51,765 bases of DNA from a candidate division FCPU426 bacterium (GTDB lineage: Bacteria > Oederibacteriota > Muellerivitia > Muellerivitales > Muellerivitaceae). The position numbers were made by a program, and so were the translations under genes. Below, piece after piece: positions 2,039 through 47,000 of the stretch. The stretch lies in assembly GCA_030038835.1 (NCBI GenBank), contig JASHQZ010000055.1, forward strand, positions 1 to 51,765, given 5' to 3'. Below the pieces are notes generated by a model. The model ran no database searches. It saw nothing but the letters and a program-made list of their open reading frames with translations, and had not been told where the DNA came from. Within the stretch, counting starts at the first letter, position 1, and each line of letters begins with the position of its first letter.

Positions 2039-4342
2039 ATGGACCTGCAAGAAATCCTCAATTCCATGGTCAGCAAAAAGGCCTCGGACGTCCATTTAAA
2101 GGCTGGATCGCCCCCCCTTTTCCGTATTGACGGCGACCTCACCCCCCAAAGCGATACTGCTTTGACCCCCCAGGAACTGGCCGAAGTGGCTTCCTACCTC
2201 ATGGATGAGAAGCAGCAGCGCCTGTTTTTCGAGGAACGCAGGGAGGTGGACCTGGCCTATGCGGTGGAGGGTTTGGCCCGCTTTAGGACCAACGCCATGT
2301 GGCAGAGGGGCCTGCCGGAAATCATCATGCGGGTCATCCCCCAGCGCATCCCCAACATCGAGGACATCAACATGCCCACGGCGGTCTTGAAACAGATCGC
2401 TATGGAGCAAAGGGGCCTGATCCTAGTGACGGGCATCACTGGGTCCGGCAAATCCACCACCCTGGCGGGCCTGATCAACGAAATGAACACCAACAGGGCG
2501 GCTCATATCGTGACGGTCGAGGATCCCATCGAGTTCGTCCATCCGGACAAGAAATGCAGCGTCACCCAGCGGGAAGTGGGCCTGGATACGGAAAGTTTCA
2601 AGTCCGCCCTCAAGTATGTCCTGCGGCAGGACCCGGATATCATCCTCATCGGTGAAATGCGCGACGTTGAAACGGTGCAGGCCGCCATCACGGCCGCGGA
2701 AACGGGTCATTTGGTGCTTTCCACTCTCCATACGATGGACACTATCCAGACCATCGAACGCATCCTGGACTTCTTCCCGCCGGAGCAGCAAAACCAGGTT
2801 CGTGTGCAACTCTCAGGCACCTTGAGGGCCGTCATATCCCAGCGCTTGGTGAACAAGGCGGACGGCGTGGGAGTGGTACCGGCAGCCGAAATTATGATCG
2901 TGACACCCACTATTAAATCCTTGATCGCCGAGGGAAAAATTTCCTCCATCCGCCAATACATCGCCGAGGGGCAAAGCCAGTACGGCATGCAAACCTTCGA
3001 CCAGTCCCTCATCCAGCTGGTGAAAAAAGGCTTTATCACCAAGGAAAGCGCCATGGAACAGGCTTCCTCGCCCTCGGAAATCGACCTGGGGTTGAAGGGC
3101 ATTTCCTCCTCCAAGGCCTCGGCCCAATCCCTCATTTCCCAGATGGAAAACGCGCAGCAAAAAGAGCGCCTGGCCGGCTGGCTAAAACGGGCGCAAGAGT
3201 ACTACGAAAAGAGGCGCTATGAGGAGGCCCGCGCGGAACTGAAACGCATCTTGCAGGAGGTTCCCGACCACAAGGAAGGTAACGCCCTGATGGCCCGCTT
3301 GAGGGAAATGGACAACCAAACCGAGAAGAAGAAGGACGCTTCCGGCAACATCAAAGCAGCCCTGCAACTTTACCGCGAAGGCAAGCACCAGGCTTCCATC
3401 CTGGAGTTTCAGAAAGCCTTGGAAGTGGACCCCGACAATAAGCAGGCCCAGGCCTACCTCAAGTCGATCCAAGCGGAATTGGAAAACCGTGGACGCGCGA
3501 GGGAGTACTACCAGGCGGCCCTTTCGGCGCAGCAGCAAAACGACCTGGCGGGCGCGCTTTCCCAGGTTGAACAGGCCCTTGTCCTGGACCCGGAAAACGA
3601 GCAAGTGCGGGAACTGGAAAAAAACCTCAAGATCGCCGTCCAAAAAGACCAGGCCAGGACCAAAGCGGATACCTTGAACCAGTCCGCCATCGAACTTTAC
3701 AAGGCGGGGGATTTGCTGGGGGCCCTGGTGGCTTGGAACAAGGCTCACGAGATCAACTCGGAGCTGGCCGAGGTGGCCAATTATCTCCAGCAGGGCACGG
3801 CCAAATTGTTGTCCTTCGGCGTGGACGGCATCGACGCAAATCCGGAAAAACAAGTCATCCTTAACCTTTTCGAGCAAGGGGTGCGCAGCTACGTGCGCTG
3901 CGACTTTCAAACCGCCATGGACTTTTTCAAAAAAGCCCTTTCCAGGGCGGATGGAAACGCCTATTTAAACGCCTATTACCAAAAATCGTCCCAAATGCAG
4001 GAACAACAGGTTTCCGAATTTTTCCAGGAAGGTTTGAGGCTCCAGCAGGCGGGAGACCTGGCGGCGGCCCAAAAGGAATTCACCAAGGTCATCCGGCTTT
4101 CTCCCGGGCACCCGGAGGCCCTCCAGCAAATGGCGGCCCTGAAGTCCGCCATCCAGCAAACCTCCGAGAAACTTTATGCGGAGGGAAAGCAGTTTTTCGA
4201 CGCCAACCAGATGGACCAGGCTATCCGCATTTGGAGCCAAATCCTGGAGCTGGACCCCTCCAACGAAAGGGCCCAAAAACGGATCGAAGAGGCTAAGATC
4301 AAGAAGAACACCTTGAGCGGCATTTTTTCCAAAATCAGTTGA
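2039..4342 (+). CDS. pilT: PilT/PilU-family type IV pilus retraction ATPase fused to a C-terminal TPR-repeat region of about 420 aa
   Basis: N-terminal ~345 aa carry Walker A GITGSGKSTTLA, Walker B DPDIILIGEMRD, His box GHLVLSTLHT and a PilT-like IKSLIAEGK motif. The remainder holds at least 7 TPR-like repeats (e.g. FQKALEVDPDNKQAQAYL, QILELDPSNERAQKRIEEA). It is a single uninterrupted 767-aa ORF. Confidence 0.85.
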   Translation: MDLQEILNSMVSKKASDVHLKAGSPPLFRIDGDLTPQSDTALTPQELAEVASYLMDEKQQRLFFEERREVDLAYAVEGLARFRTNAMWQRGLPEIIMRVIPQRIPNIEDINMPTAVLKQIAMEQRGLILVTGITGSGKSTTLAGLINEMNTNRAAHIVTVEDPIEFVHPDKKCSVTQREVGLDTESFKSALKYVLRQDPDIILIGEMRDVETVQAAITAAETGHLVLSTLHTMDTIQTIERILDFFPPEQQNQVRVQLSGTLRAVISQRLVNKADGVGVVPAAEIMIVTPTIKSLIAEGKISSIRQYIAEGQSQYGMQTFDQSLIQLVKKGFITKESAMEQASSPSEIDLGLKGISSSKASAQSLISQMENAQQKERLAGWLKRAQEYYEKRRYEEARAELKRILQEVPDHKEGNALMARLREMDNQTEKKKDASGNIKAALQLYREGKHQASILEFQKALEVDPDNKQAQAYLKSIQAELENRGRAREYYQAALSAQQQNDLAGALSQVEQALVLDPENEQVRELEKNLKIAVQKDQARTKADTLNQSAIELYKAGDLLGALVAWNKAHEINSELAEVANYLQQGTAKLLSFGVDGIDANPEKQVILNLFEQGVRSYVRCDFQTAMDFFKKALSRADGNAYLNAYYQKSSQMQEQQVSEFFQEGLRLQQAGDLAAAQKEFTKVIRLSPGHPEALQQMAALKSAIQQTSEKLYAEGKQFFDANQMDQAIRIWSQILELDPSNERAQKRIEEAKIKKNTLSGIFSKIS

Positions 4343-4369: not shown

Positions 4370-4798
4370 ATGAAGTCCAGCGACAATATGATGCGCAACC
4401 TGATCGTCGGTGTAGTCCTATTAGGAATCATCTTTATCGTCGTGCTCAATTCGGGAATGGTGGCCGACCAGGCCGTCGGATGGGTGAAGGACCATCCCAC
4501 GGATCCCGACGCACCCGATATTTTGTACAAAACCGCGCGGTGGTGCGACGTCCTGGGCAATGACGACAAGGCCCAAGCGCTTTACTGGATGTTGTACCAA
4601 CAATATCCCGAGCGGGGGGAGCTTTGCGCCCCGGCGATGTATTACACGGCCTACGACAAGTTCAATGACACCGACATCGTCGGCGTCAAGAAGCAGGCCC
4701 AAACGTATTTGGACATCCTTTTCAACCAATATTCTGGCCAGACGGAGTGGTGCTCCAAGGGTAAACAAATTCAGGATGAGGTGAATTATGCCCATTAA
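4370..4798 (+). CDS. Hypothetical membrane-anchored protein (one N-terminal TM helix, short TPR/YbgF-like helical domain)
   Basis: 142-aa ORF that starts 28 nt after the pilT-TPR stop. The hydrophobic segment is LIVGVVLLGIIFIVVL. I recognise no family. Confidence 0.55.
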   Translation: MKSSDNMMRNLIVGVVLLGIIFIVVLNSGMVADQAVGWVKDHPTDPDAPDILYKTARWCDVLGNDDKAQALYWMLYQQYPERGELCAPAMYYTAYDKFNDTDIVGVKKQAQTYLDILFNQYSGQTEWCSKGKQIQDEVNYAH

Positions 4799-5771
4799 TC
4801 GGCGGTGGTGGATCAATGTGGTGTTGCCCGCGCTGGTGGCGGCATCCTTGACGGCCCCGCCCTTACGGGCCGCCACCATTGAAGTGGAACAAGAGGACGA
4901 GGACATCGCGGCCCCGGCGACGCCTGGCGCCTCGACGGCCCCTTCCATGACTTCCACGGCGTCCCCCGCTTCGGCCCCGCCGACAGCCGTACCCACCTCG
5001 CCCGCCTCTGCCACGACTTCGGGAGGCACTACGGTAGGGGTCGCCTTCGAAGCGGCGCCCGCCCTCCATCGAGTGCGGATTAGCGACAACGTTGGTTTTT
5101 ATTATTTCGTCAAGGCGGGTTACATTACTAACCCTGACCGGCTTTCCCCCATCGCGCACGTTATCGGCAGTTTCGACTACAATCTCAGCTATTCCACGGC
5201 CAAGCGCACCTACATCGAAACGGATTCGGACCAGATCAAGCTGTCCCCCGACGACCTGCTGGTGGTTTACCGGGCCGATCTACCTCTGGAAGAACCGCAT
5301 TCGGGCGCCTTAGGCTTCCAAGTTCAGAACCTCGCCATTGTGAAGGTGGTGGACGTCCAAAGGCAGCGCTACCAAGTGGAAGTGGTCCAGTCTTTCTCTC
5401 CTTTCAAGGAGGGCGACAAGGTAGAAGCTTACGACACTGAAATCCAAAGGTGGAAGCAAGCCCAGGCCAAAAAGCCCCTTCCGGCCCACCCCGTGACTTG
5501 TTTCGTGGCAGGAGGCACACAAGAAGCTGGGCAACAATCATACAACGAGGAAGATTTTATCTTCCTGACCGCGGGTACACGGAAAGGAGTCGTCGAGGGA
5601 CAGACCTTCCAGCTGAGAAAGGTGCTCGAAACCGGCCTGCTTCAGGAACCGATCCGTCCCCTCGTGGGCGAAATCCAGGTCATTTTCGCCGGGCCCGATT
5701 GCTCCACGGCCCGGATCCTCCACAACAGCGAACCGATCCTAAAAGGTTTCGAGGCCGATTACCAACCCTGA
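4788..5771 (+). CDS. Hypothetical secreted protein with an Ala/Pro/Ser/Thr low-complexity linker
   Basis: 327-aa ORF whose start overlaps the upstream stop by 11 nt. It has a signal-like N-terminus (WWINVVLPALVAASLTAPPLRA), then an acidic patch and an APATPGASTAPSMTSTASPASAPPTAVPTSPASATTSGG linker, then a ~230-aa globular part. Confidence 0.6.
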   Translation: MPINRRWWINVVLPALVAASLTAPPLRAATIEVEQEDEDIAAPATPGASTAPSMTSTASPASAPPTAVPTSPASATTSGGTTVGVAFEAAPALHRVRISDNVGFYYFVKAGYITNPDRLSPIAHVIGSFDYNLSYSTAKRTYIETDSDQIKLSPDDLLVVYRADLPLEEPHSGALGFQVQNLAIVKVVDVQRQRYQVEVVQSFSPFKEGDKVEAYDTEIQRWKQAQAKKPLPAHPVTCFVAGGTQEAGQQSYNEEDFIFLTAGTRKGVVEGQTFQLRKVLETGLLQEPIRPLVGEIQVIFAGPDCSTARILHNSEPILKGFEADYQP

Positions 5772-5891: not shown

Positions 5892-6731
5892 ATGGCTGCA
5901 AAGAGCGAGGAAGACCCAAATTTTCACCAAATCCTTTCGTTCTTGTTGAAGGCGAAGGGCTTCGACGGGCACCGTTACAAACCCAACTACATTAAACGCC
6001 GCGTCGCGGTAAGGATGAGAGCGACGGGTTTGGCCACCTACCGGGACTATTTGGGGTTTTTGGAAAAGGACCGCCTAGAACCCTCCCACTTGCTGGACCG
6101 CCTCACGATCCACGTCACGGAGTTTTTCAGGGATCCTCCGGTCTACAAGGCGGTCGAGGAGAAGATACTGCCGAGGCTTTCCAAGGTCCCTTATGGGAAA
6201 ATCAAGGTCTGGTGCGCCGGCTGCAGCACGGGGGAAGAAGCCTATTCGGTGGCCATCCTGTTAAAGGAGTGGGTAGCTGGGATGCCCCATCTTTCATTTG
6301 AGATCTTCGCCACGGACATTGACGCGTCCAGCGTGAAGGCAGCCGAAAAGGGGGAATATCCGGCGGAGGCCGTCCAACGGCTGCCCCGGGTCCTGGCGGG
6401 CCGTTGGTTGAGAATGGCAGGGCCGAAGGCGCAGGCGTTCCAGGAGCTCAAACATCCCATCCGGTTCAGGGTGCACGACCTGCTGGGGGACTGGGAACCG
6501 GTTTTATCCGGCTTTCACCTGATCTTTTGCCGGAACCTATTGATTTATCTCACGGCACCCCAGCAGCAGAAGCTTTACGAGCGTTTCGCCGAGGTCCTGT
6601 CGCCTGGAGGATATTTGGTCCTGGGGCTAACCGAAACACTTTTGGGGCCCGCTCGGCGATTTTACCACTGCGTGGACGTGAAACACCGCATCTACCAAGT
6701 GCTGCCCCGGATCAATGAAACGTACCTTTAA
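5892..6731 (+). CDS. cheR: CheR-type chemotaxis protein methyltransferase
   Basis: 279 aa. It has the CheR N-terminal helical domain (YKPNYIKRRVAVRM), an FFRD motif and the SAM-binding VWCAGCSTGEEAYSVAILL. Confidence 0.9.
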   Translation: MAAKSEEDPNFHQILSFLLKAKGFDGHRYKPNYIKRRVAVRMRATGLATYRDYLGFLEKDRLEPSHLLDRLTIHVTEFFRDPPVYKAVEEKILPRLSKVPYGKIKVWCAGCSTGEEAYSVAILLKEWVAGMPHLSFEIFATDIDASSVKAAEKGEYPAEAVQRLPRVLAGRWLRMAGPKAQAFQELKHPIRFRVHDLLGDWEPVLSGFHLIFCRNLLIYLTAPQQQKLYERFAEVLSPGGYLVLGLTETLLGPARRFYHCVDVKHRIYQVLPRINETYL

Positions 6732-6835
6732 AAAACAGTTCGCATTCGATAGTTGGTAGTCCGCGGTCAAACGCAAAAAACTTTTCTGAAAGCACAGAGC
6801 AAGCAACCCAATATTCGTTTTTGGATGAGGAATTT

Positions 6836-8008
6836 ATGGACAAGGCCCAAGACCACATCAACCTAGGTACCGCTTTTTCTCTTTCCCGGCGTTATGAGGA
6901 CGCTATCGTGGAATTTAAACGAGCGTTGGAATTAAGCCCTTCCGACGGGGAAATCTTGTTCCAATTGGGAGGGCTTTGCACCAACGTGGGAAATTACGGT
7001 GAGGCGGAATCCCATTACCGCCGGTGCCTGGAGCTCAATCCCATGAACCTGAACGCCCATTGCAAACTTGGGCTCCTCTTGGAAGTCCAGGGGAAGTATG
7101 CCGAGGCGATCGAGGAATTTAAGAAAGCCGTCGAGCTGAACCCGGGGGACGCGGGTCTTTACAATAACTTAGGCAACGTTTATTCCAAAATGGGCCAATA
7201 TGCCGTGGCAGTCGGACAGTACCAAAAATATATCTCCATTAACTCCAGTAACGCCGAGATTTTCTTCAAAATGGGATTCGCCCATGAGCAGGCCGGACAG
7301 CTCGACGGGGCCATATCGGCCTACGAAAGGGCGCTGATCATCAATCCCCGGCATGCCGCGGTTTATGCCATCCTGGGAAATGCTTACTTGAAGCGGGGGG
7401 AATACGCGGCCTCCATCACCCAATACCTGCAGGCCCTGAAGATCAATCCCAACGAGCCCGAGGTCCATTTGAAACTGGGGCAGGCCTATATGTCGCTGGG
7501 ACGCTATGACGAAGCCTTGGAGGTCCTGAAGCAAGCCCGCCAAAGGAACCCGAGCAATGCCGAAGTTTACTTGAAGATGGGCATGATCCACGCCGGACGG
7601 GGCCACCACGAGGAGGCCATCCAAATGTACCGGAAGGTCATGGAAATCAATCCTCACGACGCCAGCGTGCACAATGTGCTGGGCTACATTTACGACAAAC
7701 AGGGCGACCTGTCAAAGGCGCTCGAAGAGTACCGGTCCGCCAAGGCCATCAATCCCAACGACGTGTTGATACTGGAAAACCTGGGAAACTTGAACTACCG
7801 GCAAGGAAATTTCGACGCCGCAGCGGAGGAATATGAAAAACTGGCCGTCCTGAACCCTTCCCACGCCGAGGCCCACTCCAAGCTGGGGAACATCTACCTC
7901 AAGAAAGGGGACCGACCCCGGGCGATGGTTCATTGGGAAAAGGCCCTGGTCCTGGATCCGGATAATGAAATTTTGAAAAATAACCTGAAGATCATCCAAG
8001 GAAATTAA
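6836..8008 (+). CDS. TPR-repeat protein
   Basis: About 11 consecutive 34-aa TPR units (e.g. AIEEFKKAVELNPGDAGLYNNLGNVY). The ATG at 6836 is preferred over the in-frame TTG at 6821. Confidence 0.85.
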   Translation: MDKAQDHINLGTAFSLSRRYEDAIVEFKRALELSPSDGEILFQLGGLCTNVGNYGEAESHYRRCLELNPMNLNAHCKLGLLLEVQGKYAEAIEEFKKAVELNPGDAGLYNNLGNVYSKMGQYAVAVGQYQKYISINSSNAEIFFKMGFAHEQAGQLDGAISAYERALIINPRHAAVYAILGNAYLKRGEYAASITQYLQALKINPNEPEVHLKLGQAYMSLGRYDEALEVLKQARQRNPSNAEVYLKMGMIHAGRGHHEEAIQMYRKVMEINPHDASVHNVLGYIYDKQGDLSKALEEYRSAKAINPNDVLILENLGNLNYRQGNFDAAAEEYEKLAVLNPSHAEAHSKLGNIYLKKGDRPRAMVHWEKALVLDPDNEILKNNLKIIQGN

Positions 8009-8029: not shown

Positions 8030-8151
8030 TTTTGAGTTGCGGAAAATAACATTCACTTACTGATGTTCACATATTTGGATGACACCAAACGCTTTATCTG
8101 GAAAAGAGGTTGGTGTCACTCAATAATGCGAACATCAGTAACACTCAAAAC
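8030..8151. repeat. Intergenic imperfect palindrome B
   Basis: It is preceded by the heptamers TTTTGAA TTGTGAA TTTTGAG TTGCGGA (8016..8043). Two perfect 9-bp arm blocks pair: ttactgatg/catcagtaa and tgacaccaa/ttggtgtca. The loop spans 8089..8109 and the right end reads actcaaaac. Confidence 0.6.
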
Positions 8152-8173: not shown

Positions 8174-8839
8174 ATGAAACCCCAGGAAAAGTCCCTTGGC
8201 GAACTCCTGCGCCAAGCCGGTAAGATCACCCACCGCCAGATCCAGGTGGCGCTGGGGGAACAGAAGAAAAGCCACGAACCCATCGGGAAGGTCCTTGTGC
8301 GCTTGGGGTTCGTGGAAGAGAGGGATATCCTTCAGGTCCTTCAGGGCATGATGGCCCTGACTTTCCGGACAGGGATGGAATGGTATGGAGTTGAAACTTT
8401 CCGGGTCAGGGAAGTGCTTAAATACGCCTCTTTTACGAAACTGGAACCGCCCCGGGAACCCTGGGAGGGCGAGTACACCTTAAGGGGGCAAGAACTTCCC
8501 CTCCTTTCTTTCTACAAAATCATGGGACTTTCCGCGCCGCGGGACCCCAAAGGCACATGGTTCGTTGTTTTAGAAAATAATGGACGCCTTTACGTCCTTT
8601 GGGTGGACGAGGTGCGGGAAGTGGCCCGGTTCAAGATCGACCAAATTGAGCCCATTCCACCCTATCTTTTCGGGAAAAAGAACGAATTGTTTTATTGTTT
8701 GGGTAGAATAAAGGGCGAGCTTTATTCCATCCTGAACCCGGACAAACTTGCCGCCGTGGCGGACTTGCGTTTCCTCTCCCCGGGCATGGAAGAACCGCAG
8801 GAAGAGATTTCCCGCCTTCCAGGCGTGGAACAGCTTTAG
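8174..8839 (+). CDS. cheW: Fusion of a T2SSE_N (MshEN-like) domain and a CheW-like domain
   Basis: N-terminus: SLGELLRQAGKITHRQIQVALGEQ-KKSHE-PIGKVLVRLGFVEERDILQVLQGM, i.e. two 24-residue GspE/MshE N-domain-type motifs with a 5-residue spacer. The C-terminal ~140 aa are CheW-like (YGVETFRVREVL ... LWVDEVREV ... GELYSILNPDKL). Confidence 0.8.
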   Translation: MKPQEKSLGELLRQAGKITHRQIQVALGEQKKSHEPIGKVLVRLGFVEERDILQVLQGMMALTFRTGMEWYGVETFRVREVLKYASFTKLEPPREPWEGEYTLRGQELPLLSFYKIMGLSAPRDPKGTWFVVLENNGRLYVLWVDEVREVARFKIDQIEPIPPYLFGKKNELFYCLGRIKGELYSILNPDKLAAVADLRFLSPGMEEPQEEISRLPGVEQL

Positions 8840-8960: not shown

Positions 8961-11174
8961 ATGCCCACTCGACCTGAAACCAAGACCATCCGAGAGATGG
9001 CCAATGGCAGCGACCAGGGAGACGCCTCCACCCACAACAATCTCGGCGTTTTCTATTATTCCAAGGGGATGCACGCGGAGGCTGTCAAGGAGTTTAAAAC
9101 CGCCCTGGAAGTGGACCCTGAGAACCAACAGGCCCAAGAAAACCTGAAGTCCGTCAACCGACACACGGGCCTTTTTGACCGTTCCATTGAAGCTTACAGA
9201 AAGTCGGTCCAGATGTTTCCGCAGGACCCCGAGGCCCATTACAACCTGGCCAATTCCTACCGCTACATCGGGCAGTTCGAGAAGGCCGTGGAAAGCTACC
9301 AAAGATGCCTTTCACTCAACCCGGATCACCCCTTTGCCCGCAATTACCTTGGAATCGCCTACAAGTGCCTGGGTAAGTTCGACGAGGCCATGGCCGAATT
9401 CCGAAGGGCCATCGAAAAGAACCCCTTTTTCGCAGACCTTCACAACAACTTGGGCGAGGTTTACTACAAAAAAGCCATGGTGAACGAGGCCCTCATCGAA
9501 TTTAAAAAAGCCATATCGCTCAACCCGGATTACGCCACCGCCCATTACAACCTCAGTTTCGTGTACGGCGACAAGAACATGCTGGAGGAGGCGGAGCGGG
9601 AGTTTAAGAGGGCCGTGGACTTAAATCCCAACTTCGGGCAGGGAGCCCAGGCGCTTTTGTCGATTGAACGGCCCAAAACCTTGGAAGAGAGGATGGCCGA
9701 AAAGGTGGCTTCCCAGCCTACGGGCGTCTCCAGCGTGGAAACCTACCTGAGCTTGGCAGCCGCCTACAAGGGGAAGGGCCTTTTGGACGAGGCGGTCAAG
9801 GAGTACAAACGGGCTATCGAGGCCATCCCCAACGAGGAAAAACTTTACCGGGCCTTAGGCGAGATTTACCTCCTTCGGGGAATGCTGGAGGAATCACTGG
9901 CCGCGTCACAAAAAGCCATTGAACTGGCGCCCAAGAGCGTGGAGAACCACATCCAGGCGGGCATCGCCCTACGGGAACTCAACCAAACCGCGGAAGCGGC
10001 CCGTCAATTCCAAACGGCCATCGAAATCACTCCCGGATCCAGCATGGCCCATTTTGAATTAGGGGTCACCTATTTCAAAATCGGGGAAAGCGAAAAGGCC
10101 ACACGCGAAGTGCGCGAGGCCCTGCAAATCGACCCACAAAACGCCGAGGCCCACTACTACCTGGGTGTCTATTACTACAAGGTGAACCTTTATGACGAGG
10201 CCATTCGCGAGATTTCCCAGGCCATTGACTTGAACGTTACCATTGCCTCCAGCGCCGAGGCCCTAACTTACCTGGGGCTTGCTCTGGCGGACAAGGGCCG
10301 TTTTGAGGAGGCCATCGTGGAATACAAAAAGGCCATGGAGTTTGACCCCAAAAACCCCATCATCCATAACAGCTTAGGCGTGGCCTACAAAAACGCGGGC
10401 ATGAGCCAAGAAGCCATCCGCCATTACCAGCAGGCCATCGAGCTCAATCCCCGATATGCCAAAGCCTATAACAACCTGGGAGTAGTTTATTTCAAGTTGA
10501 GCCAATACGACAGGGCCATTGAGGCCTTCAAGCGAGCGGTGGAAATCGAACCCGACTACAAGACGGCCCAGAACAACCTGGCCGTGGCTATGAAGAAGAA
10601 GAACGTGCTCTCAGAGGCCTCTGAAGTCTTGATCAAGCAAATTATGGCTGACCCGGAAAACCCGTCGCTTCACTTCAATTTGGGAAGCCTTTACAAAAAC
10701 ACCGGCCAGTATGCCGAGGCGGTGAGGGAGTACCAGGAGACCGTCCGCCTGGCGCCCAAAAACCGTGAGGCCCTGACCAGCCTGGGTGAGGTCTACTTGA
10801 ACATGGAGAGCTTGGACGACGCGGTTAAGGTCTTGGCCAAGGCTGTTTCCTGCGATCCCAAATTCCCGGAGGCCCACCTGCAATTGGCCAAAGTCTATAT
10901 CCGGCGCAAGTGGTGGGATGAGGCCCTGGTTGAGCTGAAGAAGACACAGGAATTGAAGGCGAACCTCACGGAGATTCATTTCCACCTGGGACAGGTTTAT
11001 CGGTCGAAAAGCTGGTGGGATGAAGCCATTGAGGAGTACCAAAAGTATATGGATTCCCCCGGCGCGGAGGAGGAGAAGGCCGCCCAGGCCATCGATTCCA
11101 TCCAGCAGATCCAGGCATGGAAAAAGGAACTCCAGGTTTCGCCCAGCGCGAATAAGTCGAAGCTAATCAAGTAA
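8961..11174 (+). CDS. Large TPR-repeat protein (737 aa)
   Basis: It is almost entirely TPR units (AIE.NP..A.AY.NLG.VY pattern, about 16 or more repeats). No other domain is recognisable. Confidence 0.85.
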   Translation: MPTRPETKTIREMANGSDQGDASTHNNLGVFYYSKGMHAEAVKEFKTALEVDPENQQAQENLKSVNRHTGLFDRSIEAYRKSVQMFPQDPEAHYNLANSYRYIGQFEKAVESYQRCLSLNPDHPFARNYLGIAYKCLGKFDEAMAEFRRAIEKNPFFADLHNNLGEVYYKKAMVNEALIEFKKAISLNPDYATAHYNLSFVYGDKNMLEEAEREFKRAVDLNPNFGQGAQALLSIERPKTLEERMAEKVASQPTGVSSVETYLSLAAAYKGKGLLDEAVKEYKRAIEAIPNEEKLYRALGEIYLLRGMLEESLAASQKAIELAPKSVENHIQAGIALRELNQTAEAARQFQTAIEITPGSSMAHFELGVTYFKIGESEKATREVREALQIDPQNAEAHYYLGVYYYKVNLYDEAIREISQAIDLNVTIASSAEALTYLGLALADKGRFEEAIVEYKKAMEFDPKNPIIHNSLGVAYKNAGMSQEAIRHYQQAIELNPRYAKAYNNLGVVYFKLSQYDRAIEAFKRAVEIEPDYKTAQNNLAVAMKKKNVLSEASEVLIKQIMADPENPSLHFNLGSLYKNTGQYAEAVREYQETVRLAPKNREALTSLGEVYLNMESLDDAVKVLAKAVSCDPKFPEAHLQLAKVYIRRKWWDEALVELKKTQELKANLTEIHFHLGQVYRSKSWWDEAIEEYQKYMDSPGAEEEKAAQAIDSIQQIQAWKKELQVSPSANKSKLIK

Positions 11175-11279: not shown

Positions 11280-11618
11280 ATGAGATTCCTGGTGTGCGTA
11301 ATTCCTCCGAAAAAGATCGATCAGGTCAAGAAGGTTCTTTGGGAGGCGGGCATTCGGGGCGTGACCCTTTCGGACGGATCGGGCTATGGTTATCAAAAGG
11401 TCCAAGTGGAATCGGTCAAGGGGGCGGACTACAAGGTCCAGTACCAGCCGCGGGTGAGGGTTGAGATTGCCTTACCCGACGAGGAAGTGGAGAAAGTCGT
11501 GGAATTGCTCCTGGACACGGTCCGAACGGGTCGTATTGGTGACGGAAAATTCTTTATTCTGCCACTGGAGGACGCAATCCGGGTCCGTACGGGCGAACGA
11601 GGTGAAAACGCGCTGTAA
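11280..11618 (+). CDS. P-II (GlnB/GlnK) family signal-transduction protein
   Basis: 112 aa that align without gaps to E. coli GlnB (sequence as recalled). Tyr51 of the T-loop (KGADY), Q39-K40, the B-loop GDGKFF and the R101-x-R103 TGE tail are present. Differences include Y38 for R38 and R58 for K58. Confidence 0.85.
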   Translation: MRFLVCVIPPKKIDQVKKVLWEAGIRGVTLSDGSGYGYQKVQVESVKGADYKVQYQPRVRVEIALPDEEVEKVVELLLDTVRTGRIGDGKFFILPLEDAIRVRTGERGENAL

Positions 11619-13662: not shown

Positions 13663-14190
13663 ATGAGCCTGCCCAAGCCCGAAACCACCGGCCTTTCCAA
13701 ACCTGAAACAACTCAAGCCCAATGGGTGGTGTTCACATTAGCCGGCTGCGAGTCCGCCGTGGCCATCCGGCAGGTCCGGGAAATCCTTCGCGTGGGCGAG
13801 ATTACCCGAATGCCCAAGGCTCCTTTATTTTTGGAAGGTATCATCAACCTAAGGGGAAAGATTATTCCGGTGATCGATCTAAAAAAACGCTTCCAAATGC
13901 CCCCAGTGGACCGCACGGAGGAATCGCGGATACTCATTGTCGAAATACAAGACCAGATAGTGGGCTTCCTGGTGGATAAGGTAGTGGAGGTCTTGCGCTT
14001 TTCCAAAACGGCGATCGAGGCGGTCCAGGGGCCGATATTGACCGTCGGAGCCGAGTTTCTGGACGGTCTTATCCCCATGGACAGGCGACTGATTTTTCTG
14101 CTCAACCTGAAGAAACTTTCAACATTGGACGACGCGAAAGCGCTCCCCGATCCCCATTCCCCTACGGAGGCAAGAAACTTTGGCCATTAA
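13663..14190 (+). CDS. cheW: CheW coupling protein
   Basis: 175 aa of a single CheW-like domain (WVVFTLAGCESAVAIRQVREI ... INLRGKIIPVIDLKKRF ... VGFLVDKVVEVL). Confidence 0.9.
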   Translation: MSLPKPETTGLSKPETTQAQWVVFTLAGCESAVAIRQVREILRVGEITRMPKAPLFLEGIINLRGKIIPVIDLKKRFQMPPVDRTEESRILIVEIQDQIVGFLVDKVVEVLRFSKTAIEAVQGPILTVGAEFLDGLIPMDRRLIFLLNLKKLSTLDDAKALPDPHSPTEARNFGH

Positions 14191-15787: not shown

Positions 15788-17881
15788 ATGAACAGCGGCG
15801 AATACAAAGAGATTTTTCTCACTGAGGCGCGAGAATACCTGTCGAACCTCAATAACTCCCTTGTGCTTTTGGAAAAAGATCCCTCCCAAGTGGAGGCCAT
15901 CCGAGAGATTTTCCGGGCCGCCCATACCTTGAAGGGAATGTCGGCCACCATGGGATACGACCCCATGGTGCGCCTGACCCACCAAATGGAGGCAGTACTG
16001 GAGCCCATCCGGTCGGGTACCCAAAGCCTTTCCACGAGGTTGGTGGACATCCTTTTCGTTTGTCTGGACCAATTGTCCAAATGGGTGGACGTGCTGGCGA
16101 ACCAGGATTTCATCGAGGAAGAAGGGCTTCAATCCGCCCTTCAACTGCTTGCTTCCGCCGGACAGGAGGGAAACGGCCCAGGAATGGCCCCCGCGCCTGT
16201 GCCGGTGTCTCCCACGGCTTCCCAAGCGTTCCTCTCTTTTTCAGAGAATGAAAGGGAAGTATTGATTCAAGCCACCCGGGGCGGTCTTGCCATTTATAAA
16301 ATCGCAGTGGAACTCTCACCTGACTGTGTCTTCAAGGAAGTGCGGGCATTCATGATCCTGAAGAACATGAACGAAAGGGGTGAAATCGCCAAAAGCATTC
16401 CGGCCCCGGAAGAGATCGAAAAGGGGCATTTTTCCAAGGGTTTCATCCTGGTTGTGGTCACGGATTCAACCGCCGAACAGTTGCGGCAAGCTGCTGGGAG
16501 TGTGGCCGAGGTGGCGATGGCGGAAGTGGAAAACCTCAAACCGGAGGACTTGGCCACGCCGCCGGTGACGGAGCAAGGAGAAGGATCGGGAATGGCCCAA
16601 GGCGGATCCAAGGCTTCCGCGTCCACCATGGTTGCCGACGACCGGCACTTTGCCTTACCGACCATTCGCGTGCATACCTCCAAACTCGACAAGCTCATGG
16701 CCCTGGTTCAGGAGCTGGTCATTTCCAAGATCCGCTTCGAGCAGGTGGCCAATACCAAGGCCCTCCGGGAACTTTCCGACCCACTTTCCCAGCTCCACCA
16801 CATCACCGACGAGCTGCAGGACGAAATCATGAAGGTGCGCCTGATGCCAGTGAAACAGATATTTGACCGGTTTCCTCGCATGGTGCGGGACTTGGCGCGC
16901 AACTTGAACAAACAGGTGGACTTGGAGATGGACGGCGCGGAAGTGGAATTGGACCGCACCGTTCTAGAGGAAATGAGCGAGCCCCTGGTGCACCTTTTGC
17001 GCAACGCCGTGGACCACGGCATCGAGGACCCGGAGGCGCGGGCCCGTGAGGGAAAGGACCCTTACGGCACTATCCGCCTGCAGGCGAAGAGGGAAAAATC
17101 CCAGGTAATCATCTCCATCTCCGACGACGGCCGCGGCATCGACCCGGATGTGGTGCGCCAAAAAGCCGTGGACAAGGGGCTGGTCACGCCGGATGAAACA
17201 GCCAAAATGACCGACGAAGAAGCGATTCGCTTGATCTCCCTTCCGGGTTTCTCCACAGTGGACAGCGCGACTGAAATTTCGGGCCGAGGCGTGGGGGTGG
17301 ACGTGGCCAAGACCAAGGTGGAGGCCGTGGGTGGCGTCTTCCGCATCCAAAGCAAGAAAGGGCAGGGAACGACTTTTATTCTCCGGTTCCCCCTTACCTT
17401 AGCCATCATCAAGGCGTTGTTGGTGAGATGCAAGGCCGAGGTTTTCGCCATCCCGGTCGTGAACATCATTGAAACCGTGGACGTGACCCCGGCTGAAAAA
17501 AGGACGATCCAGCAGCAGGAAGCCATCCTGTTGAGGGAGGAGGTGATCCCGCTTTACCCTCTCCAGGAGCTTTTGGAGATGCCTGACACCGAGACTGGGG
17601 ACGCCTCGGGGCTGGAAACGGTGCTCATCACAGAAGTTGGGGAATCCCGCGTGGCCTTGCGGGTAGACGAGGTCGTCGGCCAGCAGGAAATCGCCATCAA
17701 ACCCCTTGACCGGCTTTTAAAGGGAATTCGGGGTTTTTCCGGCGCCACCATCCTGGGCAGTGGTAAGATAGCGCTGATTCTCGACGTGAACAGCCTGGTG
17801 GAGGACTTGAAGGATAAACGGTTCCAGGCCGAACGCTCCCTCATGGAAAAGGACGACACACATGCCGACCCGCATTCTTAA
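15788..17881 (+). CDS. cheA: CheA histidine kinase (P1 to P5 all present)
   Basis: HPt domain FRAAHTLKGMSATMG, dimerisation segment IRVHTSKLDKLMALVQELV, N box LVHLLRNAVDHGIE, G boxes DDGRGID and GRGVGVDV, and a C-terminal CheW-like P5 domain. Confidence 0.95.
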   Translation: MNSGEYKEIFLTEAREYLSNLNNSLVLLEKDPSQVEAIREIFRAAHTLKGMSATMGYDPMVRLTHQMEAVLEPIRSGTQSLSTRLVDILFVCLDQLSKWVDVLANQDFIEEEGLQSALQLLASAGQEGNGPGMAPAPVPVSPTASQAFLSFSENEREVLIQATRGGLAIYKIAVELSPDCVFKEVRAFMILKNMNERGEIAKSIPAPEEIEKGHFSKGFILVVVTDSTAEQLRQAAGSVAEVAMAEVENLKPEDLATPPVTEQGEGSGMAQGGSKASASTMVADDRHFALPTIRVHTSKLDKLMALVQELVISKIRFEQVANTKALRELSDPLSQLHHITDELQDEIMKVRLMPVKQIFDRFPRMVRDLARNLNKQVDLEMDGAEVELDRTVLEEMSEPLVHLLRNAVDHGIEDPEARAREGKDPYGTIRLQAKREKSQVIISISDDGRGIDPDVVRQKAVDKGLVTPDETAKMTDEEAIRLISLPGFSTVDSATEISGRGVGVDVAKTKVEAVGGVFRIQSKKGQGTTFILRFPLTLAIIKALLVRCKAEVFAIPVVNIIETVDVTPAEKRTIQQQEAILLREEVIPLYPLQELLEMPDTETGDASGLETVLITEVGESRVALRVDEVVGQQEIAIKPLDRLLKGIRGFSGATILGSGKIALILDVNSLVEDLKDKRFQAERSLMEKDDTHADPHS

Positions 17882-18643: not shown

Positions 18644-19744
18644 ATGCTTGCCAGCGCCATTCTCGCCGAAAAACTGAGAGCTTCGTTTAAAAAAAGCCAT
18701 ATCACCCAGGCCGATTTAATATCCTGTTGCAAAATCATCCTGGACAATTATAAATTCGACTGCGTTTTCCTGGCCAACGCTTCCACCCCCGAGGAAACGC
18801 CCTCACCCCTGGCCTTTGATGGCAGAGAAGAGATAATGGAAACCTGCCTTTACCGTTTGGGAGTGGAGGAACGGCAAACACTGGCCAAGCGTCCCATGAA
18901 AACCTACCGGGATATCACGGGTAAGCCGATCTTTAATAAATCGGGCTCCTTGCGTATTCAAAAGCCTAATAGCGGCGTTTTTTTGTCCTTTTACCTCCCC
19001 AAGAAACTTTACCTCCTGCTGGGGTGCGCCCACCAAAATTCCCAGGATTACGACCTGAAACTGCTGGAGGAGTTGGACGGCGCCTGGAAGCAATGGCAGG
19101 CCTCCCTCGAAAATGCGGTGTTACAGATCACCTCTTCGAGGAAAATGGAACTGCCAGTTGCGGCCAGAGACACGCCTCGGGTCGAGGAAAAAAGTGGCCC
19201 GACAGCCGTAGTGCAACCGATACCACCCCTCCCGAAAGAGGTCGAACCCCGGGACAACGGACGCAGGCCGGTAATCCTGGTGGACGAAGTGACCCGTCTT
19301 TTCAACAAGGATTATTTTTCCGAGTGCCTGGCCATCGAAGTGGAAAGAGCCAAACGCTATTCCCGCATGATGAGCTTGATGTTCCTCAGTGTGGCGCCCA
19401 ATAACGGGGCCTTGGCGCCCCAGGAGGAAAACCATGTGGCGACCCAAGTGGCGGAAATCCTGTCGAAGAGCCTTCGAAGGGTGGACATCATCTGCCGGCT
19501 GGAGAAGGAAAAATACGCTATCGTGCTTCCCGACACGGCCCACAACACCTATGGCATCATCGCCAAGCGTATTTTTAAGTTCTTCAAACTCATCATGGGT
19601 GATGCACCCTTGGTTTTCCTAAACATTAGCGCCTCCACTTACCCCAAGCACGCCACTACCCACCACGATCTCTTGGAAAGCGCCGAAAAACTATTAGGCC
19701 AGTCAAAGGAAGCGGGCCCTAATAAGGCGGTGCTTCCGGAATGA
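18644..19744 (+). CDS. Degenerate GGDEF-domain protein (inactive cyclase fold with retained RxxD I-site) and an unknown N-terminal domain
   Basis: The C-terminal ~165 aa align to GGDEF domains (DEVTRLFNKDYF ... RRVDIICRLEKEKYAIVLPDT). The GG(D/E)EF position reads EKEKY, and the metal-binding DxD/HFK segment is replaced by SVAPNNG. RRVD sits exactly 5 residues upstream of the ex-GGDEF position. Confidence 0.7.
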   Translation: MLASAILAEKLRASFKKSHITQADLISCCKIILDNYKFDCVFLANASTPEETPSPLAFDGREEIMETCLYRLGVEERQTLAKRPMKTYRDITGKPIFNKSGSLRIQKPNSGVFLSFYLPKKLYLLLGCAHQNSQDYDLKLLEELDGAWKQWQASLENAVLQITSSRKMELPVAARDTPRVEEKSGPTAVVQPIPPLPKEVEPRDNGRRPVILVDEVTRLFNKDYFSECLAIEVERAKRYSRMMSLMFLSVAPNNGALAPQEENHVATQVAEILSKSLRRVDIICRLEKEKYAIVLPDTAHNTYGIIAKRIFKFFKLIMGDAPLVFLNISASTYPKHATTHHDLLESAEKLLGQSKEAGPNKAVLPE

Positions 19745-33806: not shown

Positions 33807-34187
33807 ATGGGTTCACCCTATTTTCCCGACAAACGTATTGCACCCCGCTATCCGGTGCGAATCCATGTCCGTTTCAGGCTTTTGAAGTCGCCGGATGGCG
33901 AACCGCCCGAAGCCGACCTTCATAATGGCAACAACTTGATGTCAAACATCAGCCGGACAGGCTTTTTTCTTTCGACCAAGAACTATTTGGAAATCGACTC
34001 CCAAATCGAGGTGGAATTCCCATTGGAGGAATTCCGAAAGATTTTAAGGGCGGAAGCCCAGGTAGTGCGCGCCAACCACGCGAATTTTCCCAACCAAGGA
34101 CGCTATGAATACGGCCTGCAATTCCTGTCGATGCACCCGCATTTCCGCGAGACGTTGGATACCTTCCTGAAGGTGACTGGGGGATGA
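33807..34187 (+). CDS. PilZ-domain c-di-GMP-binding protein
   Basis: 126 aa with both binding motifs intact: RIAPR (RxxxR) and NISRTG ([DN]xSxxG). Confidence 0.8.
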   Translation: MGSPYFPDKRIAPRYPVRIHVRFRLLKSPDGEPPEADLHNGNNLMSNISRTGFFLSTKNYLEIDSQIEVEFPLEEFRKILRAEAQVVRANHANFPNQGRYEYGLQFLSMHPHFRETLDTFLKVTGG

Positions 34188-44028: not shown

Positions 44029-47000
44029 ATGTTGGCTGGTGGACTTCTTCTTCAACGCTTTCAACAACTGGCCCTTCTGGGTTTGGGGATCGTTTTTTTT
44101 ATCTTTCCGCTCCGTGGGGCAAACGCCCAAACAACAACTTCGGCCACGCCGGCTGTTTCGTCTTCCCCGGCAGCCACTTCCGCTTCCGATTTGATGGTAA
44201 GTCCTGAAGAGGAAATCAAGATACTGGACGCCATTGACGCCCAGTCCAATAGCCTTAACGCCCAAACCACGCCGTTGGCCACGTCTTCCATCTCCGGGTC
44301 CGCCTCAACCGCCGCCCCGGCAACGGCGGCCGGAGGCGGAGGGGCGTCAATTTTAGCGCCGCTTTCCGGAGCCGCAGCTCCGGTCAACTATCCTCCCCCG
44401 GCAGCTCCAACCGGTTTGAGCGTGCTAATTCTTAAGGAAGGGGTTTACCTTTCCTGGGACGCGGCGCCGGCGGGCTCCCCCGTCACGGCCTACGACGTTT
44501 ACCGCTCCACCACACCGGGTGAGGGATACCTGCGCGTTAACACCCAACCCGTCCCAGCCCCGTATTTCCTGGACGGTTCCCAAACCAGCCTTTCTCCCCC
44601 GCGAAACGGCGAGGATTATTTCTACGTGGTGACCGCCAGCGATTCCTACGGCAAAACTAGTCCTGATTCAGATGAATTGACGGTTACACCCGATGGCATG
44701 GAAATTGTCCAGTCTGAAGCAACGGCGCCGACCCCCAGCCCAACGCCCGAGGCGGAAAAAGTCCTGGCTATTCCGGAAAAGAATCTGATCAACCTCCAGT
44801 TGCCGGCGGACACGTCGCTTTCCATCCAGGGTTACAAGAAAATCGAGGCGGATTTGTCCTTCCAGGATTTCTACGACCGGCCCGTGGAGAATGGCGTTCC
44901 GCAGCAGCAGGACACCACGCTTATCAATCAGGAGCTAGTAGTCGACTTGGTGGGCAAGGTGGGGAAAAACGTGGACGTGAACGTGGACTATAGCGACGTC
45001 AACCGGGCGGGAGGCGTGGACCAGACCAAGCAGGTCATTTCCATCACCTACCACGGCGATGAGGACAGTCCCGTCCAGGAGGTGGAATTCGGTGACCTGC
45101 AGCTGGTGCTCCCCAACACCCAGTTCGCGGGCTTCAGCAAGAACCTCTTCGGCCTCGAGGCCATGTTCAAGTTCGATAACTTTCACTTGACCACTTTTTT
45201 CGCCCAGACCCAGGGCATTTCGGCTACCAAGACCTTCACCGGCAACACCGTGCAAGTGGACAAGATGATCCAGGACATCCAGTATGTCCCGAACAAATAC
45301 TTTCTCATTACCCGTGAAAACCTGACCCCCACCACAAGCACATCGACCAATGGCGCCCTTCCCGCGCCCAATACGGAGCAGATCTGGGTGGACCAGGGGA
45401 CGGGCCAGATCAACCCCACTGGGCCCAATTTCGGAGGGCCCAACAATCTTTTTGCACATTGGTTGCCGGGACGGGACTACACCATCGACTACTCCACGGG
45501 TATCATCACCTTCATCACGGCCCTGCCCTCCACGGCCCGCATCGCCGTGGGATTCCAGAACCAAAACGGCCAATACCGGGGCTTGAACGCTTATAACAAT
45601 AGCAACACAGCGAATTTTCCCCAGAACGTGCCTTCCACTGACCTGTTCGTGCCGGACAATGGGGCGGTGGGGGTTACAGTTAGCGTCTCGAATCCAACCT
45701 TGAATCAAACAGGGAAATACCCGGGATTCCTGATCAAGGACAACAACAATTCCACCGGCTGGACATCGGCCAACGCCATTGCCTGCTCGCCCCTTTATCT
45801 GGTCAATTTTTTCAACCTGGGCACCGACAAGATCGTGCCCCCCCAGGACGACCCGGGTTTTCTTTTCCAAGTCATTTCCACCAACAATACGGTCCTTCAA
45901 ACCGGGCAGGGCGTCTCAACGGTGGGCTCTTCCACCCCCTGGGTCTACAACGTGGACCTGGACTTCAACTACCTAACGGTCATCAACGCCAATTTCCTGG
46001 CCTCGGCCGCGCCGACCTCCTTCTTATGGCCGGAACGGCCCTTCGCCAACCTGGACACCTCCGGCGGCTCCAGCTCCAGCGCCAACCCGCCGGACGTCTA
46101 CTGTCAGACCGTTGCGCCCACTAGCCAGTATACCGTCCATGTCCGCTACAAGACCCAGTCGAACAACTACTCGCTGGGCCAGTTCAACATCATCCAGGGA
46201 AGCGAGTCGGTGTATCTGGACGGCCGTCGCCTCCAGCGCAACGTGGACTACATGATCGACTACACCTCCGGCACCCTGGATTTCCCCAACAAGAGCATCC
46301 TCTCACCGGACAGCCAGATCGTGGTGACCTACGAGTACGCGCCCTTTGGCTCCACCGGCCAAAACAACATCCTGGGTGCCCGGGCCGAATACGACATTAC
46401 CGACAACTTCTTCATCGGCTCCACCTTCCTTGAGGACGACGCCCAGCAGCCCCTGGAGGTGCCGCAGATCGGTTCCACGCCCGACTCCCTCACCCTTTTC
46501 GACGCGGACACGCGCCTGGACCTGTCCCGGGATGACGTGAAATCCCTCACTGGCGTGATCCCCGGTCTTGAAGATTGGAAGCCTCCCTTGAGCGTCAAGC
46601 TCTCAGGGGAAGTCGCCCAAAGCTACTACAACCCCGACACCTACAACGCCGAGGGGGAAAACGGCGTCGCCATGATCGACAACATGCAGGGCATCGACAG
46701 CGCAACGGCCCTCTCAACGAACCAGACTTCCTGGCTGGTTTCCGCTCCCCCCGAGCCCGTGGGGTTTCTGGGCAACGTCACCTACGACGGGGGAGCGGAC
46801 GCCACCAATAATCGGGTCCGTTTCTACAACTCCGGCGCACCCAACTCCGTCATGGAGGTTTTTCAAACCATCGGCACGTCTAACACCACCGGCGGCTACA
46901 CCACGGTGCCCGCCTACGGCGGCAATGTTTATGCCCAAACCCAACAGGCCAACGATGCGGTACAGGTGTTGCAGTTTCCTTATTCGAACCTTACCAACCA

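Follow-up and report, generated by a model that had tools for sequence, protein, structure and literature searches.

A stretch of 51,765 nucleotides from a candidate division FCPU426 bacterium (contig JASHQZ010000055.1; the whole stretch is called the window below) carries a chemotaxis operon in which one gene, at positions 8174..8839, encodes a CheW protein preceded by an MshEN_N-type domain, the tandem-motif module that binds cyclic di-GMP (c-di-GMP) in MshE, PilB/PilF and NfrB. MshEN_N-CheW is a new domain architecture made from known parts, and sensing of c-di-GMP by the fusion protein is plausible from its sequence. The protein is read here as a c-di-GMP-responsive coupling protein, probably of modest (micromolar) affinity, as neither the stacking Arg residues nor the second Gln of the tandem motif are retained; the confidence attached to this reading stops a little short of even. 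The gene starts with ATG, has a GAGG ribosome-binding site 8 nt upstream and is made up of the following parts.

8174..8839, + strand: MshEN_N-CheW fusion gene, 221 aa (open reading frame (ORF); domain matches; AlphaFold2 (AF2) model with a mean predicted local distance difference test (pLDDT) score of 85.9)
8192..8263, + strand: motif I, residues 7-30 (SLGELLRQAGKITHRQIQVALGEQ), helices a1-a2 (NF053729 alignment and AF2 helices)
8264..8278, + strand: five-residue spacer KKSHE, residues 31-35 (read from the sequence; spacing equal to that of the MshE motif)
8279..8350, + strand: motif II, residues 36-59 (PIGKVLVRLGFVEERDILQVLQGM), helices a3-a4, running into CheW strand b1
8357..8755, + strand: CheW domain, residues 62-194 (PF01584, Foldseek)
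8756..8836, + strand: C-terminal tail, residues 195-221, variable and of low confidence (AF2 pLDDT, family alignment)

The N-terminal module agrees with the MshEN_N definition in its layout, with two 24-residue motifs and a five-residue spacer adding up to 53 residues. Wang et al. (2016, PMC5013675) give the tandem motif as RLGxx(L/V/I)(L/V/I)xxG(L/V/I)(L/V/I)xxxxLxxxLxxQ, in the same form as in the original prediction for this gene. That prediction had also quoted the N-terminal sequence exactly, and the Leu/Gly skeleton and the KKSHE spacer can be read from the ORF as it described them. The Leu-Gly pair of motif positions 2-3 is present as L8-G9 in motif I and as I37-G38 in motif II. A Gln closes motif I (Q30) and a Met closes motif II (M59), and the leading Arg is replaced in both halves, by Ser (S7) and by Pro (P36), again as had been predicted.

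The NCBIfam model NF053729 ('cyclic di-GMP-binding domain-containing protein, MshE-related', 53 positions) matched residues 8-57 with 56.4 bits against a cut-off of 38 (E 1.9e-15) when the full protein was searched, and 60.2 bits were obtained with the N-terminal 64 aa alone. Residues 1-64 were also compared with the PDB by phmmer, yielding T. thermophilus PilF (E 1.5e-14), GSPII-B structures of PilF among the matches, and V. cholerae MshE 5HTL (E 2.2e-5). Since the matches of both kinds far exceed chance, the likeness to MshEN_N is, judged by sequence comparison, real homology. In the AF2 model, which was built on a 41-sequence family alignment, helices were predicted at residues 8-14, 20-33, 37-44 and 49-57, with the first CheW strand following from residue 59 without a linker. 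A Foldseek search of the PDB with the model gave, for the N-terminal 52 residues, c-di-GMP-bound MshE (5HTL_B; root-mean-square deviation 0.8 Å, 36% identity) and PilF GSPII-B (8PDK_A; 1.2 Å, 38% identity). As modelled, the first 58 residues are an MshEN_N-type four-helix bundle joined directly to strand b1 of CheW.

The module had originally been described as T2SSE_N, or MshEN-like, and a profile search with Pfam T2SSE_N (PF05157) had been proposed as a check. This search gave no match in the fusion protein, even at E<=10, so that the Pfam domain name could not be kept, whereas the MshEN-like character was borne out by NF053729 and by structure. PF05157 is silent because the protein has just the helical half, MshEN_N, and not the full T2SSE_N/GSPII domain; MshEN_C is absent, for which there is no room because the CheW strand begins at residue 59. 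The prediction had itself named the lack of a significant T2SSE_N match as refuting, a condition that is formally triggered but was poorly chosen. Treating the PF05157 miss as a refutation of the whole proposal was considered and set aside, as the motif-level NF053729 model and the structure comparison both match. A class 'MshEN_N only, no T2SSE_N1 domain' has been catalogued by Wang et al. (PMC5013675), and the fusion protein fits it.

The rest of the protein is a regular CheW domain, in agreement with the prediction. PF01584 matched residues 62-194 with E 1.2e-21 and 77.3 bits against a cut-off of 23.5, and solved CheW structures were the top Foldseek matches in the PDB (E 4e-13 to 1e-9, TM(target) 0.81-0.89). 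A Glu/Arg pair, E38 and R62 in E. coli CheW, is used as a conserved criterion for CheW proteins; the residues aligned with it, E80 and R104, are invariant in the 41 family sequences, and an LRG motif is likewise invariant there. By all sequence criteria the CheW part looks like a working scaffold. The C-terminal tail was modelled with pLDDT values of about 49-56 across the last 20-30 residues and varies in both length and sequence in the family alignment. A plain CheW of 175 aa is encoded in the same operon as the fusion protein.

In MshE, c-di-GMP is contacted by 12 side chains (R9, L10, G11, L25, L29, Q32, R38, L39, G40, L54, L58 and Q61) and also by the backbone amides following each Gly (PMC5013675). 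The contact positions were compared across an alignment of 114 family members. Nine of the 12 are kept, being invariant or conservatively substituted, namely L8, G9, I23, L27, Q30, I37, G38, I52 and L56, which correspond to MshE L10, G11, L25, L29, Q32, L39, G40, L54 and L58, respectively. Among them, L8, G9, L27 and G38 are invariant, as is G58 outside the contact set, and Q30 is Gln in 113 of the 114 members. The two hydrophobic triads, L8/I52/L56 and I23/L27/I37, show no more than conservative substitutions throughout. The position of MshE R9 is occupied by S7, with Ser in 111 of 114 members, and that of R38 by P36, with Pro in 112 of 114.

The original prediction had regarded the missing Arg residues as the main danger to ligand binding, a worry which published binding data largely answer. 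Substitutions of MshE R9 caused a less than 5-fold loss (PMC5013675), PilF GSPII-B, in which Lys and Leu replace the two Arg residues, has an affinity of 6 nM, and PilF GSPII-C binds at 0.3-0.5 µM with Pro at position 1 of motif II (both PMC5013675; PMC11731258). The Pro of the fusion protein falls in the relaxed published set for this position, [RKPN], as it does in the binder GSPII-C, and K6 is a candidate to take the place of the Arg lid. The most damaging changes described for MshE are G11L (binding non-detectable), G40I (72-fold) and L10A or L39A (about 36-fold) (PMC5013675), none of which is present in the fusion protein. The isolated MshEN_N(1-62) of MshE binds c-di-GMP alone, at 0.35 µM (Wang et al., PMC5013675).

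Several observations weigh against c-di-GMP as the ligand. The loss of the second Gln, which had been overlooked in the prediction, is costlier than that of the Arg residues: the position of MshE Q61 is occupied by M59 and holds M, L, I or V in the family, with Gln in 0 of 114 members, and in MshE Q61A led to an 11.8-fold loss, binding not being abolished, compared with 9-fold for Q32A (PMC5013675). The Ser at position 1 of motif I lies outside both published sets for this position, [RKPN] and (R/K/L), and is unable to stack on guanine. At several contact positions Leu has given way to Ile/Val, and L29V alone costs 4-fold in MshE (PMC5013675). MshEN_C, with its Asp108 contact, is absent. When the published penalties were multiplied, a dissociation constant (Kd) of a few micromolar to tens of micromolar was obtained, which lies in the upper part of the quoted physiological range of c-di-GMP. 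The profile score is of no help either. In a control, known MshEN sequences were scored with NF053729, yielding 86.5 bits for MshE (a binder), 63.5 for PilF GSPII-B (6 nM), 54.3 for PilF GSPII-C (about 0.4 µM) and 55.6 for PilF GSPII-A, an experimentally shown non-binder, next to the 60.2 bits of residues 1-64 of the fusion protein. The score fails to separate binders from the non-binder and was dropped as a predictor of binding; because GSPII-A scores similarly, the profile match proves homology and not ligand binding. PilF GSPII-A is without the Gly of motif II, which the fusion protein keeps. Nor is a link of the module to c-di-GMP genes universal. The nearest GGDEF genes in families f9-f11 are two that lie 8-12 kb upstream, separated from the module by the housekeeping genes rho, rpmE, prfA and prmC (in the f9-type loci compared they encode GAF-GGEEF proteins), and this proximity may be mere neighbourhood; in f15-f23, no GGDEF gene was seen near the module among the matches listed. 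Finally, the invariant TPR neighbours of the gene, described below, suggest a protein partner just as readily.

Conservation is higher in the module than in the CheW domain to which it is attached. Among the 114 members, mean pairwise identity was 78% for the N-terminal module against 50% for the CheW domain, and in pairs with CheW domains less than 35% identical it was 56% against 26%. The fusion gene was found in 65 of 99 FCPU426 species genomes, among them 47 of the 60 high-quality ones, always as a single copy; as every match starts at query residue 1-4, every copy carries the module. A word-based search returned 112 clusters of about 211 aa, for which the precomputed Pfam annotation was PF01584 only and of which the named ones were called 'CheW'. 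A genome scan found the family in metagenome-assembled genomes (MAGs) labelled 'candidate division FCPU426' and more distant copies in MAGs labelled Goldbacteria and Methylomirabilis. The scan pattern was the peptide QEKSLGELL, and since the same peptide was the pattern, its invariance in loci L006-L038 is partly circular. In representatives obtained free of the pattern (P0126, P0154, P0218 and P0227), motif I has (K/R)-(S/A)-L-G, and position 1 of motif II is P, K or L. An exhaustive profile search covered 1.84 billion representatives, of which the best 150 were surveyed for architecture; these were dominated by proteins with 3-4 CheW domains, and at least five complete full-length representatives covering both domains (P0032, P0126, P0154, P0218 and P0227) were present among the matches listed. 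Multi-CheW proteins of 450-770 aa, with three to five of these domains in tandem, were abundant within P0114-P0259 and outscored the single-domain family in this search.

If the protein is a c-di-GMP-responsive coupling protein, the CheW domain would place it in receptor-CheA arrays beside the plain CheW of the operon, and the N-terminal module would act there as a sensor of a small ligand, with c-di-GMP the likeliest one. Contacts to the nucleotide would come from the triads L8/I52/L56 and I23/L27/I37, from the backbone amides that follow G9 and G38, and from Q30. Given the rigid junction between the bundle and the CheW b-sheet, occupancy would be expected to alter the coupling between CheW and CheA or between CheW and the receptor. 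Alternatively, occupancy might decide whether the fusion protein or the plain CheW enters the array, the two competing for sites. By either route, kinase output would be tuned to the cellular c-di-GMP level. Besides homology, predicted fold and retained contacts, this reading draws on the strong constraint on the module, on an apparently functional CheW domain, on the c-di-GMP network of the host genome and the I-site-bearing GGDEF protein at the end of the operon, and on the precedents of MshEN_N in CheA and CheX and of other CheW proteins fused to sensor domains.

The gene neighbourhood bears on this reading and, as much, on its strongest rival. In the window, the genes concerned are the following.

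5892..6731, + strand: CheR, first gene of the conserved core (Pfam CheR and CheR_N; syntenic in most loci extending far enough)
6821..8008, + strand: TPR protein, 395 aa, directly upstream of the fusion gene (Pfam TPR)
8961..11174, + strand: TPR protein, 737 aa, directly downstream of the fusion gene (Pfam TPR)
11280..11618, + strand: canonical P-II protein, 112 aa, between the gene of the 737-aa TPR protein and cheY (PF00543, E 2.4e-22)
13663..14190, + strand: plain single-domain CheW (PF01584, E 9.4e-35)
15788..17881, + strand: CheA (Hpt-P2-dimerisation-HATPase-CheW/P5; domain matches)

CheR, CheB, CheD, CheY and CheA are thus encoded alongside the fusion gene, and this CheA is its likely partner kinase. 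Across loci the core order is CheR - TPR (about 392 aa) - MshEN_N-CheW - TPR (about 738 aa) - P-II - CheY - CheC - CheD - CheW - CheY - CheB, often followed by CheA and CheC/X, and it holds down to about 30% identity of the fusion protein. The P-II gene, too, keeps its place in nearly all loci as far as that level of identity.

The rival is a nucleotide-independent docking module, in which the bundle would tether the flanking TPR proteins or another partner to the CheW/CheA array, and the hydrophobic surface that holds guanine in MshE would hold a peptide or a helix. We consider this possible, although doubtful. The order of the two TPR genes around the fusion gene speaks for it, being kept in nearly all loci extending far enough, down to about 30% identity. 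So do the almost fixed lengths of the TPR proteins: the upstream one has 390-404 aa in the majority of loci, also at about 30% identity, with a few ORF calls longer, and the downstream one, found in nearly all loci, has mostly 730-757 aa, with one call of 687 aa. The gene ends often abut or overlap. The N domains of GspE-family proteins dock on GspL. The homologous N-terminal bundle of XpsE has lost c-di-GMP binding (PMC5013675). The Ser, Pro and Met/Leu changes are fixed and not drifting, as expected of a re-purposed surface, and they are preceded by an invariant Q4-E5-K6 lead-in ahead of motif I, which is without counterpart in the basic patch of MshE; the three fixed substitutions and the lead-in fit either a sensor or a docking module. 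A surface given over to docking would, however, leave the retention of both Gly residues and both hydrophobic triads, which are ligand-specific features, to be explained, and the MshEN_N constructs and intact proteins tested by Wang et al. (PMC5013675) bind at low-micromolar or stronger affinity. A docking role and ligand binding can also coexist.

Binding of another nucleotide, such as 3'3'-cyclic GMP-AMP (cGAMP), pGpG or another cyclic dinucleotide, with the specificity re-tuned by Ser, Pro and Met, appears improbable. The substitutions do fall exactly at the positions of base-stacking and ribose-phosphate contacts, and MshEN_N binds cGAMP weakly, with a Kd of 0.33 mM (PMC5013675); yet both halves keep the guanine-specific readout by the backbone amides that follow the conserved Gly, and no other dinucleotide synthase was seen in the operon, no genome-wide search for one having been made. 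That the module has no regulatory role, serving structure or solubility or surviving as an evolutionary relic, is a null hypothesis with no direct support and very unlikely to be correct, given that the module is better conserved than the CheW domain and is retained in every match of a gene that is single-copy in the 47 of 60 high-quality genomes that carry it.

The preferred reading of the fusion protein as a c-di-GMP-responsive coupling protein can be extended to the operon as a whole, and this extension is put forward tentatively, as something that may well prove wrong. In it, the scaffold itself would be a second-messenger receptor, c-di-GMP on the bundle switching the coupling of receptor to CheA, and it would form an input layer with the two TPR proteins, P-II and, in the family of the window, a GGDEF protein that retains only its I-site. 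Such a previously unrecognised layer would gate the chemosensory pathway by c-di-GMP and by metabolic state, with an output that may not be flagellar. The GGDEF gene is the last of the operon.

18644..19744, + strand: degenerate GGDEF protein closing the operon in the window family (GGDEF domain, E 3.6e-15)

Its signature reads EKEKY instead of GGDEF, by which the protein is judged catalytically dead, and the RRVD I-site is kept at the canonical five residues upstream (...RRVDIICRLEKEKYAIVLPDT). The only ortholog with an alignment reaching the signature (L001/L023: RRVDVLCRVSPNQY, RRVD...SPNQY) is also degenerate and also keeps RRVD, while the other ortholog alignments end at or just after RRVD. 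With a degenerate signature and a retained RxxD I-site, the protein is a candidate for receiving c-di-GMP through the I-site only, and not for making it as a cyclase.

The host MAG has a size of 2.6 Mb and is about 85% complete. It encodes about seven GGDEF proteins, at least ten PilZ proteins and four methyl-accepting chemotaxis protein (MCP) genes, none of the latter in the window. One further CheA/CheW pair was found on contig C60, the CheA there being the only other CheA-like frame, and FlhA is present. From this content of GGDEF, PilZ, MCP, CheA/CheW and FlhA it follows that c-di-GMP signalling and flagellar chemotaxis are both present in the host. A stand-alone PilZ ORF of 126 aa is located at 33807-34187 (PF07238, E 5e-10), and on contig C221 (1684-3073) a PilZ ORF (134-aa frame) directly adjoins an MCP gene on the same strand, a pair that is another possible contact between c-di-GMP and chemotaxis. 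The host genome contained two other matches to NF053729, both in PilB/GspE-type ATPases. In one of them, a PilB-type ATPase on contig C107 (4489-4647; 71.8 bits), motif I is canonical (KKRLGEMLVDEGII...EQ) and motif II (RLEKIL) has Glu in place of the Gly at which G40I costs MshE 72-fold.

The association of the module with flagella is loose. Among genomes at least 90% complete, 39 had both the module and FlhA, eight the module only, seven FlhA only and six neither (Fisher p = 0.06). The eight with the module and without an FlhA match are G019, G026, G028, G030, G031, G033, G052 and G078, and six genomes at least 95% complete keep the module without FlhA. In the f9-type loci L004, L005, L027-L029 and L038, no CheA follows CheB. 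That eight near-complete genomes keep the module without FlhA hints that the output of the operon is not, or not only, flagellar.

The nearest known systems are MshE (5HTL) and PilF GSPII-B/-C (8PDK). The fusion protein shares with them the pair of 24-residue motifs, the five-residue spacer, a predicted four-helix bundle, Leu-Gly at positions 2-3, both triads and the Gln of motif I, and with GSPII-C the Pro. It differs in having Ser for R/K/L at position 1 of motif I and Met/Leu for the Gln of motif II, in being without MshEN_C and the ATPase, and in that the module is joined to a CheW b-strand; binding here is predicted. The same module has been recorded in chemotaxis proteins, in a CheA of Aeromonas veronii (HPT-P2-MshEN_N-dimerisation-HATPase-CheW) and in (MshEN_N)2-CheX of Geobacter lovleyi (Wang 2016, PMC5013675, Supplementary Table 4), where c-di-GMP input is implied by architecture only; the host protein here is a stand-alone scaffold CheW and not a kinase or a phosphatase. 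An MshEN_N-CheW architecture is absent from the same Supplementary Table 4. Full-text searches found the MshEN_N-CheW fusion in no publication, papers containing both MshEN and CheW being judged by title and abstract, and T2SSE_N together with CheW was likewise found in none. A Pfam-based survey has listed 30 further undescribed CheW architectures; such surveys miss MshEN_N-CheW because Pfam annotation shows CheW (PF01584) only.

In CheV (CheW-REC), CheW-CZB and the CheWS of Treponema denticola, a fusion of CheW with a CheR-like S-adenosylmethionine sensor (PMC10653840), an array-anchored coupling protein bears a domain that senses a small molecule or a phosphoryl group and by which CheA can be modulated. 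The fusion protein would resemble them in this, although its candidate sensor domain is of another type, is N-terminal and is attached without a linker. The PilZ-domain chemoreceptor Cbp1 (PMC6454048) and a c-di-GMP-responsive receptor (PMC3604760) are comparable in that c-di-GMP acts on the chemosensory pathway and not only on the motor; there, PilZ is carried by receptors, whereas here MshEN_N on the scaffold is the candidate. The known or proposed routes of c-di-GMP to chemotaxis are PilZ-bearing receptors and, by domain architecture only, CheA and CheX. If the preferred reading is true, the 'stay or move' messenger c-di-GMP would be placed at the joint between receptor and kinase, and a further kind of sensor-bearing coupling protein would stand beside CheV, CheW-CZB and CheWS. 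The family is also a natural experiment in which drift of the MshEN motif (Ser, Pro, Met) can be set against retained binding. A test in vitro would be cheap, because a 60-residue domain suffices, and work in vivo would need a surrogate host, because the phylum is uncultured.

Ahead of the operon, the window family has genes for a TMEM260-like protein and a PilT-TPR fusion as well as two ORFs outside the Pfam families. The remaining features of the window are listed here.

2039-4342: PilT/PilU-family ATPase with a C-terminal TPR array of about 420 aa (pilT_fam, 470 bits, residues 3-347)
4370-5771: two overlapping ORFs of 142 and 327 aa, following pilT-TPR
8057..8141, no strand: imperfect inverted repeat of 39 nt, lying in the 165-nt gap between the upstream TPR gene and the fusion gene, arms 82% complementary with 7 nt between them
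44029-50097, + strand: very long ORF of 2022 aa

In PilT-TPR, T2SSE was matched at residues 3-275, and loci of the window family keep the protein, with a length of about 768 aa, upstream of the che operon. The original prediction had seen in the N-terminal module of the fusion protein an echo of this ATPase. The likeness proved superficial, PilT-TPR being without an N-terminal MshEN/T2SSE_N domain, and a link between the two proteins through a shared N-domain was rejected. The two overlapping ORFs matched no Pfam family and are conserved in the window family, with matches in most of the loci L001-L030. In other genomes the upstream TPR gene abuts the fusion gene or overlaps it by up to 4 nt, without a gap such as the one that holds the inverted repeat in the window.

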